NCBI GenBank assembly: GCA_043771175.1
Contig: JAYVHO010000012.1
Span: 1 to 57,487 of the forward strand
Length of the DNA stretch: 57,487 nucleotides
Source of the DNA: a bacterium
Lineage (GTDB): Bacteria > Patescibacteriota > Minisyncoccia > Phycocordibacterales > UBA1006
Direction: 5' to 3'
Part shown: positions 4,075 through 8,423 of the stretch, piece by piece
Layout of the letters: each line of letters begins with the position of its first letter
How positions within the stretch are numbered: position 1 is the first letter of the stretch
Notes under the pieces: generated by a model
What the model saw: the letters and a program-made list of their open reading frames with translations, nothing else
Told to the model about the DNA's origin: nothing
The model's database searches: none
Translations under genes and position numbers: made by a program

Positions 4075-5506
4075 AGTCTACACCAACGCCGCTATGTCCG
4101 CCACCGCCTGTATCTTCATATCCTCGGTCACGAATAATATCTTCAAAGGTGGTGTTTTTACCATTAAAGTACAGTTCTACCATTCCCGTAGGACCATTTC
4201 TATGTTTTTCAATAAGAATTTCTGCGATGTTGGTACGTTCTGATTCATCTTTTGACTTATCTTCACGGTGAATAAACATAACCACGTCGGCGTCTTGCTC
4301 GATTGATCCTGAATCACGAAGGTCTGATAGACGTGGTTTTCCTCCACGACTTTCCACTTGACGTGACAACTGTGACAGTGCCACAACCGGAACATCTAAT
4401 TCACGTGCTAATTCTTTTAATGAACGAGAAATTTCTGTCACTTGTTGCACTACGTTGTCGGTTTTTCTTTCCGGGTTAATAAGTTGAAGGTAATCAACGA
4501 TAATGAGATCCAGGCCATGTTCACGTTTTAATCGTCTGGCCGCAGAACGCATATTTAAAATAGTATTACCGGGTTGGTCTTCAATAAATATTGGTGCTTT
4601 TGAAAGTACTGCCATGGCTTCTTGGATTTTCTCATAATCATCAGGTGAAAGATTTCCATTTCTGATTTTCCACCCATCAACCTTTGACTGAGACGATAGC
4701 ATTCTGTTAATAAGTTGTTCTGATGACATTTCTAGTGAAAAAATTCCCACAGAAGCACCGGCATTTACCGCAGCGTTGCGGGCGATATCCATTGCAAGTG
4801 TGGTCTTTCCAACTGACGGACGCGCTGCCAAAATAATGAGATCAGAACGTTGAAGTCCGGATAGTTTTAAATCAAGTGCCGCAAATCCGGTCGATACTCC
4901 ACGCATGGCATCAGGGGATTCCGATAAACGTTCCAGTGCCGCAAATGCTTCCGGAAGAATATCACTGATTCCAATGAATTTATGTTTTACGTGATTTGAT
5001 TCAACCGATTGTGAAAATATTTTTTCTGCATCATTGATGGTTTCACCCAGTGTTTTGTCTTCAATAAATCCCAGTTCGGTGATTTGTGCGCCAGCTTCAA
5101 TAAGATTTCTGTGAGTTGCTTTTTCAGCAACAATTTTTGCGTAATGTTCAATATGGGCAGATGAGTGAGTTGATTCGGTAAGTTTTGAAAGATAATGAGT
5201 TCCACCAACAAATTCAAGCACGCCCAAATCTTTTAGTTTGGCGGTAATGGTCAAAAGGTCGATTGGCTCATGGTTGGTCATGAGGGTTTTCATGGTGGTG
5301 AAAATGAGAGAGTTTTTTTCTGAGTAAAATGAGTCAGATTTGATGAGATCGACAATATCAAACAACGCCTGTGGACGCAAGAGGATTCCACCGAGGACTG
5401 CCTCTTCTGCCTCCAAATTCTGAGGAGGAAGGCGGTTTCTGTACAAATTATCCAGAGAAATCTCGGGTTTTTTGAATGTGCTGTTTTTATTGTCCGTTTT
5501 GGCCAT
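4061..5506 (-). CDS. dnaB: Replicative DNA helicase
   Basis: PPQNLEAEEAVLG, Walker A ARPSVGKT, IIVDYLQL, and LSDLRDSGSIEQDAD. Confidence 0.99.
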   Translation of the reverse strand: MAKTDNKNSTFKKPEISLDNLYRNRLPPQNLEAEEAVLGGILLRPQALFDIVDLIKSDSFYSEKNSLIFTTMKTLMTNHEPIDLLTITAKLKDLGVLEFVGGTHYLSKLTESTHSSAHIEHYAKIVAEKATHRNLIEAGAQITELGFIEDKTLGETINDAEKIFSQSVESNHVKHKFIGISDILPEAFAALERLSESPDAMRGVSTGFAALDLKLSGLQRSDLIILAARPSVGKTTLAMDIARNAAVNAGASVGIFSLEMSSEQLINRMLSSQSKVDGWKIRNGNLSPDDYEKIQEAMAVLSKAPIFIEDQPGNTILNMRSAARRLKREHGLDLIIVDYLQLINPERKTDNVVQQVTEISRSLKELARELDVPVVALSQLSRQVESRGGKPRLSDLRDSGSIEQDADVVMFIHREDKSKDESERTNIAEILIEKHRNGPTGMVELYFNGKNTTFEDIIRDRGYEDTGGGGHSGVGVDFDEF

Positions 5507-5613
5507 GTTGGTAGTAGTATAGCATTTTGATAAGAATAATTAGAATTTACTTGACTTTTTCCTTATTATATGTGATAATAAATTCATATTTTTTAACATA
5601 AAACCAATCAGAA

Positions 5614-6327
5614 ATGAAAAATTTTAGTGATTTCACTGAACAAGATTTAGAAAATCTTGTCGAGTCATGTGGTGGTCCTGAAAATGCATGGGCTCAAGTT
5701 CAAGAATTTTTAGCCAAAAAAGCAAACAACGCTACAAATCTACAAAAAGTAGATGAAAGTATTGAAGTCAAAAAGCAAAAAACAATCACATTCTGGAAAA
5801 CACAATTTAATACTGATATTCCAGAAACAGACATCATCCCACCTCAACCAGAGCATTTGTCCTATCTTAGTTGGTCACCAGAAAAATCTTTACGTAATTG
5901 TGATGAAGTATTACAAAAATACAAAGAACAATTCGGTGAAGATAATATATATTGTTACTATGATTCAATTGATGAGTCAATTCAGACACAACAAGACCGC
6001 ACAGAAGAAAGTTACTGGTACTGGCATAAGGGAGAGGAAGAACCAGATAAAAGACACCGAGGTAAATCGTACGATGTATTTTCAAAAGAAGAAACAAAGT
6101 ACATGATTCCTTTTGAAGGTATAGTGTTTGCCTATGAATATAGACTTAGCACAGGCAAAATGTTAGATATTGATGGTGTTACCTATTTTCACGCTCTGTA
6201 TTCTGGCGGCAACGTCATCCTCATGTGCGAGAACGATAGCGAATTCTACTTCGACTACAATTACCGCAATCGCAGTAATGACAAGTACGGACCCCGTGAG
6301 ATCAGTTTTAAAACTTTTCTCTTGTAA
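5614..6327 (+). CDS. DGR target protein with a C-terminal variable region (probable C-type lectin-like fold)
   Basis: The last ~45 codons contain a VR matching the downstream TR with adenine-specific differences. The fold is inferred from known DGR targets. Confidence 0.9.
   Translation: MKNFSDFTEQDLENLVESCGGPENAWAQVQEFLAKKANNATNLQKVDESIEVKKQKTITFWKTQFNTDIPETDIIPPQPEHLSYLSWSPEKSLRNCDEVLQKYKEQFGEDNIYCYYDSIDESIQTQQDRTEESYWYWHKGEEEPDKRHRGKSYDVFSKEETKYMIPFEGIVFAYEYRLSTGKMLDIDGVTYFHALYSGGNVILMCENDSEFYFDYNYRNRSNDKYGPREISFKTFLL
6193..6301 (+). repeat. DGR variable repeat (VR)
   Basis: 109-nt ungapped match to 6569-6677 with 16 mismatches; the last 28 nt are identical (IMH side). Confidence 0.97.
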
Positions 6328-6332
6328 CTTTT

Positions 6333-6365
6333 AACCCTTGCGCTTGTAAAAGTGTGAGGGTTTTT
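6333..6365 (+). promoter_or_regulatory. Hairpin 3' of VR (DGR target-recognition hairpin and/or terminator)
   Basis: aacccttgcgctt-gtaa-aagtgtgagggtt, a 13-bp stem with 3 G:T pairs and a GTAA loop, followed by a T run. Confidence 0.7.
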
Positions 6366-6568
6366 GTAATATATTAATATGGTTATTAAACTGGTTTGTG
6401 TATACAAATAGCAGTTTGCCACATTTTAAAAACTGCCTATGCTGACGTGCGTATAATAATGTATACGAAATAATGATAATGATCTTATCAAATGGATATA
6501 TAGCAGAGTATCCTCAACCCTTGGTTGCGACTGGGTGTGGTGAATAGATGTGTCAGTATAGAAACGGG

Positions 6569-6677
6569 GCTCTGAATTCTGACGACAACGTCATCAACAT
6601 GTACAAGAACAATGGCAAATTCAACATCAACTACAATAACCGCAATAACAGTAATGACAAGTACGGACCCCGTGAGA
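6569..6677 (+). ncRNA. DGR template repeat (TR)
   Basis: Non-coding copy of VR with 44 adenines and 12 AAY codons in the VR frame; 15 of 16 differences fall at TR adenines. Confidence 0.97.
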
Positions 6678-6683
6678 AGTTTT

Positions 6684-6706
6684 AACCCGCTATAGATGCG
6701 GGTTTT
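6684..6706 (+). terminator. Hairpin 3' of TR
   Basis: aacccgc-tatagat-gcgggtt followed by tt. It overlaps the avd stop codon on the other strand. Confidence 0.6.
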
Positions 6707-7068
6707 CTGCTACGGATTTATACCAACCATGTGCCATAATAGAAATTTTTTGGAGTTCCTGAATAATTTTTAAATAAAATTCTGAAGTAATAATATTAAG
6801 TTCATATTCTGTTCTTATTATATGTTTTGAAACTTCGATATTTCTACGAAGTGAAAGAATATATGGTAGTTTTTCTTTCTTATTAAGTAATCCTGCTTGA
6901 ATACTTTGCTCAAGTGTTTTTAAAATAGAGGTAAGTAGTTGGCTATGAATACCTAATTTGTCTTGCTTTGAAAGTTTACTGCTTGCTCTATAGGTATTTT
7001 TATATACACTTTCTATATGATGAACAATAGGAATTGCAAGGAAGTTTTCTCGGGGGGGTACTATTCAT
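6690..7068 (-). pseudogene. avd: DGR accessory variability determinant (Avd, four-helix bundle), frameshifted at the C7 tract
   Basis: Hand translation gives ...LAIPIVHHIESVYKNTYRASSKLSKQDKLGIHSQLL...LRRNIEVSKHIIRTEYELNII...ELQKISIMAHGWYKSVAENPHL*, matching the Avd E.G.M..GW-type C-terminus. The ATG at 7068 is one base out of frame (379 nt = 126 codons + 1). Confidence 0.85.
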
Positions 7069-8043
7069 AGTAATTTATTTAATAGTATAACATCGCTTGA
7101 AAATATATTAGATGCATGGAATAAATTCAAGATACAAAAACTTAAAAAATTTGGAGTGCAAGAATTTAGATATAATTTAGAAATAAATTTATTACAAATT
7201 CATAAAAAACTTATAAGTAAGAAATACATCCCAGACCCATATAAACCATTTTGTATTCAAGATCCTAAAAAACGCTTAATTCATAAAGCAGAAGTGTCTG
7301 ACAGGGTCGTGCATCAAGCAATCATTAATATTATTGAACCAATTTTTGATAAAAGTTTTATAAACGATTCTTTTTCTTGCAGAAAAGGTAAAGGAACACA
7401 CAAGGCTGTTAAAAGATTTAAATATTTTTTACAAAAAGTAAGTAAAAATAACACTCAGCAAACATGGATATTGAAGTGTGATGTTAAAAGATTTTTTGAT
7501 TCTATAAATCACGATATTTTAAAAGAACTTTTACATAAAAAAATTGAATGTTCTGAAACAATAAACCTTTTGAATATAATTATAGACAGTTTTGAAAAAT
7601 CAGAAAATACTGGATTACCACTTGGAAACTTAACAAGCCAATTTTTTGGAAATATATATTTACACGAATTAGATTTTTTTATTAAACATAGTTTGAAGGT
7701 AAAATATTATCTCAGATATTGTGATGATATGATTTTGGTAAGTAATAGTAAAATTGAACTTCAAAGTTGGCTTAAAACTATAACTGAATTTTTATACAAA
7801 AATTTGAAACTTGAAATCCATCCATCCAAGATATTTTTTAGAAAATATACCCAAGGAATGGATTTTTTAGGATATATAACATTTCCGAATTATACAATTT
7901 TAAGAAAAAGTACTAAACAAAGAATTATTAAAAAATGGTCTGGTTTGAATAATGATCAAAAAAATTCATATTACGGCGTTTTGAAATATTCAAAAAGTTT
8001 TAAAATAAAGAAAATTCTAAATAAAGAAGAAACAAATATATAA
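7017..8043 (+). CDS. DGR reverse transcriptase; 5' end frameshifted at G7 (track ORF 7156..8043 is the in-frame part)
   Basis: GLPLGNLTSQ (DGR-type SQ), YLRYCDD, RKGKGTH, and LKCDVKRFFDSI motifs. The RT frame stays open upstream to 7024 and encodes the conserved ITSLENILDAW segment, but has no ATG/GTG/TTG before 7156. Confidence 0.93.
7052..7058. repeat. G7/C7 homopolymer inside the overlapping 5' ends of RT (+) and avd (-)
   Basis: cgggggggta at 7051-7060. It is the longest G/C run I noticed in the window. Confidence 0.95.
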
Positions 8044-8141
8044 TTTATTGACATATATAATTAAATAATGTATTTTGTTGATATCTTGTTTAACTAATAG
8101 TTAATCGTTCACAATCTTAAGATGAAAAGGAGGTGTAAAAA

Positions 8142-8423
8142 ATGGAAGACCCAAATAATCAATCATCAACTAATTCTGATATAGTAACAATTGCTGAAAT
8201 AGCTGATAAAGTTGATGCAAGTTCTAATAATGGTTGGAATGAGAAAGATGAAGCTGAAGCAACAGGTCAATAATCGAGTAATGTTTCAAATACCTGGCAT
8301 TCTGTTCGAGATGATGCACAAGAGTCAGGTGAATTACCAGAAAGAATGTTTACAAAAGAAGACTCACAAGATGGCGGAAATGGTTCTGGCATTTTTAGTT
8401 TTCTGAGTGGCATATTTGATTAG
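8142..8423 (+). pseudogene. Small acidic hypothetical protein with an internal in-frame TAA (8271-8273)
   Basis: Strong SD (aggaggt) before ATG 8142. MEDPNNQ...EATGQ*SSNVSNTWHSVRDDAQESGELPER...FD* continues in one frame through the stop. Confidence 0.6.

Follow-up and report, generated by a model that had tools for sequence, protein, structure and literature searches.

A candidate slipped-strand switch in the overlapping first codons of avd and the reverse transcriptase gene in diversity-generating retroelements of Patescibacteria

Introduction

In the poly-G/C contingency loci of Campylobacter jejuni, Neisseria, Haemophilus and Helicobacter, a gene carries a homopolymer within its first codons and is ON or OFF according to the length of that tract modulo 3. 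Here we describe a tract of this kind in a 57,487-nt stretch of DNA (GC 34.8%; contig JAYVHO010000012.1 of assembly GCA_043771175.1, from a member of the Patescibacteriota), hereafter called the window. The tract consists of seven G's and falls within the first codons of two genes of a diversity-generating retroelement (DGR): the gene for its reverse transcriptase (RT) and, on the opposite strand, the accessory variability determinant avd. The resemblance to the known contingency loci extends to an AT-rich host without MutS-type mismatch repair, to tract lengths of 7–12 with a mode of 9–10, and to a tract that is kept among relatives while its phase differs. Unlike those loci, a single tract would here gate two divergent, overlapping open reading frames (ORFs), and the thing gated would be a targeted hypermutation machine (RT plus Avd) rather than a surface structure or a restriction-modification enzyme. 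A further difference is the hosts, uncultured Patescibacteria (the candidate phyla radiation, CPR), in which such a switch is predicted from sequence.

Two other described systems come close. The fimbrial switch of Haemophilus influenzae, reportedly described by van Ham et al. in 1993, has a (TA)n repeat between the divergent genes hifA and hifB. It resembles our locus in that a single simple-sequence repeat (SSR) controls two divergent genes together; however, the hifA/hifB repeat is a promoter spacer, placed where the two promoters overlap, and its effect is on transcription, whereas the present tract lies inside both coding regions, would act through the reading frame, and is not placed between a −35 and a −10 hexamer, no such pair having been found. 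The known cases of programmed transcriptional slippage (Baranov et al. 2005, PMC1088944), namely IS elements and Thermus dnaX, involve A/T runs and a defined frame relation. As in those cases, a homopolymer lies here in a conserved ORF whose DNA-encoded frame is ‘wrong’, but the loci described below show three offsets, dinucleotide repeats as substitutes and, in the window, a tract of only 7 bases.

Regulation of DGR mutagenesis is poorly understood, and an unrestrained DGR risks ruining its own target. In the prototype DGR, that of Bordetella phage BPP-1, the order is avd, template repeat (TR), brt, all on one strand, and we know of no such tract there. The element in the window is instead like the CPR-type DGR of architecture B3 (Wu et al. 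2018, PMC5758913), in which a target gene with a C-terminal variable repeat (VR) is accompanied by a TR, a reversed avd and the RT gene, and in which VR/TR differences are adenine-specific. This TR-(avd)-RT architecture makes up 90% of CPR DGRs (PMC5758913). Neither Wu et al. (2018, PMC5758913) nor Roux et al. (2021) mentions a tract, and the Wu survey likewise makes no mention of a frameshift or of overlapping starts where avd and RT meet. A first-pass annotation of the window had cautioned that poly-G near CPR DGR RTs might already be on record. Our full-text literature searches, whose reach did not extend to the main CPR-DGR paper (Paul et al. 2017, Nat Microbiol), returned nothing that connects such a repeat with DGRs or with CPR bacteria, and we found no publication that describes the tract.

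Results

The tract and the two reading frames

The features that carry the argument are the following.

7052..7058, unstranded: G7/C7 simple-sequence tract, one base over (or two under) an in-frame length for RT and avd
7017..7068, unstranded: head-to-head overlap of the 5' coding ends of RT and avd, 52 nt
6690..7068, minus strand: avd, with ATG 7068-7066, body open 7064-6693, stop 6692-6690
7017..8043, plus strand: DGR reverse transcriptase, with ATG 7017, body open 7024-8040, stop 8041-8043

The tract, GGGGGGG at 7052–7058, is the longest G/C run of the window and falls in RT codons 12–14 and avd codons 4–6. Each gene begins within its partner: read on the opposite strand, the RT ATGs at 7017 and 7020 become the CATCAT of Avd His15-His16, and the avd ATG becomes an RT histidine codon, CAT at 7066–7068. 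Translation from ATG 7017 on the plus strand gives MMNNRNCKEVFSGGYYS and then meets TAG at 7068–7070; the RT body, open over 7024–8043, is displaced by one base, in the +1 frame. Translation from ATG 7068 on the minus strand gives MNSTPPRKLPCNSYCSSYRKCI (MNSTPPRK...) and terminates after 22 codons; the Avd body is open over 7064–6693 in a different frame and lacks a canonical start until a methionine near its C-terminus. The RT body has no ATG, GTG or TTG before GTG 7156, by which point 75 nt of the conserved RT profile (starting at 7081) have passed. Public gene calls begin the RT at this GTG, giving a protein of 295 aa without the conserved N-terminus, and leave avd uncalled.

Because G7 puts both genes one base out of frame, neither is expected to be made from its own ATG. 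In silico loss of one G yields an RT of 341 aa and an Avd of 125 aa, and by codon count the gain of two G's (G9) likewise restores both. Outside the tract neither ORF is interrupted, over 339 and 124 codons in a genome of 35% GC, and the N-terminal layout of Avd (M...T-P-P-R...IPIVHH) agrees with that of in-frame relatives. As at contingency loci, repeat length sets the frame: on these translations, tract length modulo 3 is predicted to decide whether Avd and RT are made, and the consensus at G7 is the predicted OFF state of both. The first-pass annotation had proposed divergent starts at 7017 and 7068 overlapping by 52 nt, a G7 tract that breaks both genes, their joint restoration at G6 or G9, and the lack of a usable start past the tract, and all of this was confirmed by the frames. 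It had also read a promoter element in TACACT, 6 nt before ATG 7017. The hexamer is present at that distance, yet it was not among the sites called by the promoter scan; across the region, promoter-like sites were at the level of shuffled sequence (8 vs 6.2 ± 2.1), with none around the tract.

The length of the run is not in itself remarkable. The source genome, an assembly of ~670 kb, holds 4 G/C runs of at least 7 nt where about 6 are expected from composition; thus the G7 alone is not significant, its position carries the significance, and we rejected the notion that it is a statistically unusual run of this genome. The sole other such runs are at C7:17115 (G8), C18:7305 (G8) and C6:67607 (C7), and those on C6 and C18 adjoin similar GC-rich palindromes. 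These three tracts may themselves be variable, or they may belong to a small element that is repeated in the genome.

Survey of related junctions

We gathered loci from RT relatives in the same family, 80 loci in Patescibacteria species-representative genomes and 80 metagenome-contig loci, which together gave 148 non-redundant Patescibacteria junctions of the TR-(avd)-RT layout (labelled L003–L193). Our own Avd profile placed avd on the reverse strand, directly upstream of RT, in almost all loci. A simple repeat was present at the homologous spot in 105 of the 148 junctions. In 92 of these 105 it was poly-G, ranging from G6 to G14 with a mode of 9–10 (G6, 1 locus; G7, 3; G8, 10; G9, 28; G10, 31; G11, 14; G12, 4; G14, 1), and in 13 it was (CT)n, (GT)n or (GA)n. 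By flank composition and profile coordinates the tract sits just upstream of Avd helix 1, and its distance from the RT start varies. Homopolymer runs of at least 7 nt numbered 91 in 17 kb of junction sequence vs 13 in 612 kb of flanks, an enrichment of roughly 250-fold. In all 91 junction runs the sense strand of RT carries the G's and that of avd the C's, and therefore the tract always encodes glycine in RT and proline in Avd. The expectation that a slippage-prone repeat of variable phase recurs across CPR DGRs was thus borne out: the homologous tract is kept in 105/148 loci, with lengths of 6–14 and a phase that varies.

A coding constraint, that is, a need for poly-proline in Avd or poly-glycine in RT, was considered and rejected. 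In the 43 loci without a repeat the two starts abut or overlap (CATG, CATATG), and Avd begins M-x-x-x-D-[VI]-P-I-L, without poly-proline; because these loci do without poly-Pro and poly-Gly, Avd and RT need no PPP or GGG. The dinucleotide-repeat loci encode LSLSL or ERERE in place of poly-Pro or poly-Gly, and the proline and glycine codons of the tracts are all CCC and GGG despite a GC content of roughly 35%. Since four types of repeat occur at one spot, it is the repetitiveness that is kept, not a motif or a peptide.

Some of the relatives' assemblies break at the tract. In L093 a stretch of Ns abuts G10, the contig of L161 starts 5 nt before G12, and L142 has a G22 tract 28 nt from its contig end. 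Such breaks fit either length heterogeneity or poor read quality.

Frame states across relatives

An Avd with an in-frame ATG was found in 34/105 SSR loci vs 42/43 SSR-free loci (Fisher p = 9e-15), and an RT without any in-frame start in 22/105 vs 0/43 (Fisher p = 5e-4). Invariant in-frame tracts among homologues, the outcome that the first-pass annotation had set as a test of its proposal, were therefore not what we saw. RT must be read through the tract in 50 of the 105 SSR loci, the source genome included. In the other 55, RT starts independently, past the tract, and avd alone would be gated there. The proposal of one switch for both enzymes hence holds for the former class and fails for the latter.

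Among the 50 loci whose RT frame crosses the tract, avd ATG and RT ATG shared one offset in 30 of 45 scorable cases, against an expectation of 1/3 (p = 5e-6); the concordant pairs comprised 7 ON/ON, 15 at +1/+1 and 8 at +2/+2. This concordance indicates that the upstream ATGs are true starts displaced by the tract alone. A direct comparison is offered by L060 (G8, both genes in frame) and L065 (G9, both out), whose ATGs stand at identical distances from the tract. In-frame relatives share the layout of the window, for example L061 with MNNRDIKVVSGGGATYSLFHNIIS and MEKTISSTPPRHNFDIPVVHKM. Their head-to-head overlaps span 49–60 nt, each ATG is antisense to a histidine codon of the partner gene, and their leaders read M-N/D-N/D-R...GGG in RT and M....PP(P) in Avd. 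The ATGs at 7017 and 7068, earlier assumed to be the starts, are homologous to the start codons that these relatives use.

Integrity and activity of out-of-frame loci

In out-of-frame loci the downstream Avd ORF was intact in 97% and the RT ORF in 99%. TR/VR pairs were found in 119 loci, and the 116 pairs of at least 80 nt were compared; the non-adenine share of their mismatches was 3.9% in OFF loci, 9.5% in ON loci and 5.6% in repeat-free loci. We rejected the view that OFF loci are decaying pseudogenes, as they match ON loci both in ORF integrity and in the quality of their TR/VR pairs. On an RT tree (FastTree; the relatives are not independent), frame state required 43 changes vs 43.8 ± 2.4 when shuffled, showing no phylogenetic signal, while SSR presence required 15 changes vs about 37 when shuffled and is strongly inherited. 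Judged by this tree, the repeat is inherited and its phase becomes scrambled more quickly than species diverge.

Recent activity was evident in one lineage that is OFF at consensus. L133 and L134/L144, from three metagenomes, are identical over 2,028 nt covering the TR, avd, a (CT)10 tract and most of RT. Both genes are out by the same offset at (CT)10, and one more CT unit would restore both. The VRs of L133 and L134/L144 differ at 11 sites, all of them TR adenines. Because these 11 changes occur beside an otherwise identical cassette, the DGR must have acted very recently in an OFF-consensus lineage. The contig of L133 (cassette at 1–2098) is ~7% divergent from those of L134/L144 from position 2099 on, which may mark a recombination boundary. 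Elsewhere, L138 and L139 differ by one CT unit, (CT)23 vs (CT)22, at 99.8% flank identity.

Mutational setting

Lack of mismatch repair accompanies poly-G phase variation in Campylobacter and Helicobacter, and the same lack is met here. MutS (PF00488) is absent from the source genome and from 54/55 genomes of its family, and a search for MutL in the source genome did not find it. TrmD (PF01746) was not found in the source assembly, but is present in 50/55 family genomes and in all 30 of the 30 high-quality ones; it is missing here because roughly 10% of the genome is missing from this metagenome-assembled genome. EF-P likewise seemed absent from the source assembly, and weak EF-P-like ORFs occur in family genomes.

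In Campylobacter, a poly-G/C length of at least 7 is the lower limit for phase-variable tracts, the mutability of G7 may be below 1e-5 and so too low for efficient switching, and in C. jejuni NCTC 11168 variability is documented for all poly-G/C tracts of at least 8 (PMC6321876). The tract in the window is a repeat inside an ORF whose length is just at this threshold, which agrees with the earlier remark that G7 is short for high-rate slippage.

Identity and layout of the element

The remaining parts of the element are these.

5614..6327, plus strand: DGR target gene, 237 aa, with the VR at its C-terminus, within the last 45 codons
6193..6301, plus strand: variable repeat (VR), a 109-nt direct repeat with 6569-6677, 85% identical
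6569..6677, plus strand: template repeat (TR), just past the 3' end of avd
6684..6704, unstranded: hairpin AACCCGC-TATAGAT-GCGGGTT, directly after the TR and followed by TTTT, read from the sequence

The element is a real DGR. TR 6569–6677 and VR 6193–6301 differ at 16 positions, 15 of them TR adenines; the sole other difference is A at VR 6238 for G at TR 6614. The RT belongs to the DGR clade: it matches RVT_1 (E = 6e-27), carries the motifs LGNLTSQ and YCDD, and is 40–51% identical to about 190 CPR DGR RTs, relatives that adjoin adenine-specific TR/VR pairs in 119 loci. In those 119 loci, as in the window, the TR lies just beyond the 3' end of avd. Avd was recognised by matches to bAvd PF22296 (E = 2.6e-6) and NF033474 (E = 9e-8), both below the curated cut-offs. 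The source-genome Avd was among the 20 family loci that trained our own profile, which matches about 160 further loci; those matches are on the reverse strand, adjoining RT. A Pfam search of the 237-aa target protein gave no family match.

The avd stop codon (6690–6692, minus strand) sits in the loop of the hairpin at 6684–6704. From its sequence and place, this hairpin could be a terminator of avd transcripts or a DGR RNA element downstream of the TR. A palindrome at 6298–6321 follows the VR directly, and a 13-pair terminator-like hairpin at 6333–6362 follows the stop of the target gene; both structures resemble the hairpin known to flank the VRs of other DGRs. An Rfam scan over 5400–8400 matched no known RNA family.

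Discussion

We consider it probable that the tract is a contingency-locus switch, working by slipped-strand mispairing on the DGR machinery, and that the source genome is OFF at the short end of the length range. The G7 is this genome's copy of a slippage-prone SSR that most Patescibacteria TR-(avd)-RT DGRs keep in the first codons of avd and that, in about half of them, the source genome included, also lies within the first codons of the divergently overlapping RT. Replication slippage in genomes without mismatch repair would lengthen or shorten the tract, so that lineages would flip stochastically and heritably between DGR-ON and DGR-OFF, and adenine mutagenesis of the target gene would be limited to a subpopulation or to episodes. 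In the source genome, one deletion (G6) or two insertions (G9) would turn both genes on; G9 is a length class found in ON relatives. We lean, somewhat less firmly, towards a broader reading as two-level bet-hedging, in which a hypermutable repeat controls DGR hypermutation across Patescibacteria: most cells would be OFF, rare ON cells would rewrite the target and then drift OFF again, and one base change would co-regulate both subunits.

Several observations weigh against the switch. The offsets of the avd ATG were 0:+1:+2 = 21:50:31 (n = 102), which departs from uniformity (chi-square p = 0.0017) and is therefore not what a simple neutral random walk predicts; the class in excess (50/102) is the source genome's own ‘one extra base’ state, an excess that is unexplained. 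Poly-G was constant at consensus in resampled lineages (G9 in L038 and L114–116; G10 in L166/L167 and L056/L121), and the single poly-G difference among near-identical contigs, G12 vs G9 in L161, lies at a contig end. The exact G6 and G9 forms of RT and Avd were absent from a collection of 15 billion proteins, and a flank pattern with a variable gap found no match in metagenome contigs. Because G7 is at the short end, switching in the source genome should be slow, and its VR/TR pair carries one non-adenine mismatch (6238).

We weighed four other readings. The tract might be a recoding site, where RNA polymerase slippage or +1 ribosomal slippage on CCC/GGG throttles Avd and RT instead of switching them. 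This would suit loci of which about a third are in frame and yet all remain intact, and a lineage that is OFF at consensus with recent VR turnover. The excess of the ‘one extra base’ state is explicable by a directional +1 event, and tract lengths peak at 9–10, about the length of the RNA-DNA hybrid, at which slippage on A/T runs is known. However, all three offsets are common, with +2 in 31/102 loci, so that no single directional frameshift fits; the fixed frame relation of a frameshift site is lacking both in avd (21:50:31) and in the concordant pairs (7:15:8). The 13 dinucleotide-repeat loci behave no differently as to frame, and we know of no established elongation-phase slippage, transcriptional or ribosomal, on dinucleotide repeats. 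The tract of the source genome has just 7 bases. A lack of TrmD or EF-P, which we had considered as the basis for +1 slippage on CCC, is unsupported, given TrmD in 50/55 family genomes and the weak EF-P-like matches. We regard recoding as unlikely. We also think it improbable that the change was fixed locally, that is, that the tract shrank to a poorly mutable G7, leaving the DGR permanently off and starting to decay. G7 is indeed the shortest common class (3/92 poly-G loci) and marks the limit of low mutability, the VR/TR pair has its one non-adenine mismatch, and every public contig that carries the target protein and RT has them in identical form (in look-ups by RT and TrpS, the matches listed came to one contig, identical to the window). 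Against decay, both ORFs are open apart from the tract (339 and 124 codons), the RT motifs are intact and 15/16 VR/TR differences are adenine-specific; moreover, a single non-adenine mismatch is typical of loci in all states (mean 0.7–1.7).

To the two remaining readings we give little credence. If the G7 were a sequencing or assembly error, the real tract would be G6 or G9 and both genes would be intact. Homopolymers are error-prone, and assemblies of relatives break at their tracts (L093, L161, L142). Still, a separate Logan assembly (run SRR14689442), possibly built from the same reads, matches the window exactly over 9 kb, G7 included, and a tract of 7 bases is short for an error in the consensus. 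Out-of-frame states also occur in about two thirds of the more than 100 relatives, whose sequences come from many studies and assemblers, and avd and RT offsets agree; we hold an error to be very improbable. Equally remote in our estimation is a non-coding signal (a Shine-Dalgarno (SD)-like or polypurine element, a promoter spacer or a structure of the DGR RNA) combined with non-canonical starts downstream. For it speaks the position of the tract 13–40 nt upstream of RT's own ATG in 55/105 loci, often exactly 13, and on our own reasoning poly-G could pair with the anti-SD sequence. But (CT)n and (GT)n occupy the same site, with no common sequence or purine content, and as the four repeat types share no motif, an SD-like element, a polypurine element or specific RNA pairing is excluded. 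A divergent-promoter spacer was rejected on the lack of hexamers around the tract and on promoter-like sites at shuffle level; the Rfam scan gave no match either. The tract keeps its place relative to the Avd N-terminus rather than the RT start, a start would not fit between it and Avd helix 1, and the offsets of the avd and RT ATGs are concordant.

The slipped-strand switch remains the reading that we favor. Gene callers truncate or miss avd and RT at the tracts; consequently, surveys of CPR DGRs may under-annotate avd and misjudge activity. A conserved slipped-strand switch, if real, would regulate the DGR through Avd and RT by simple means, heritably and reversibly, and it could explain how mutagenesis is limited to a minority of cells in the tiny, regulator-poor genomes of the CPR. 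It would also join contingency repeats and retroelement-driven diversification in one hierarchy of localised hypermutation.

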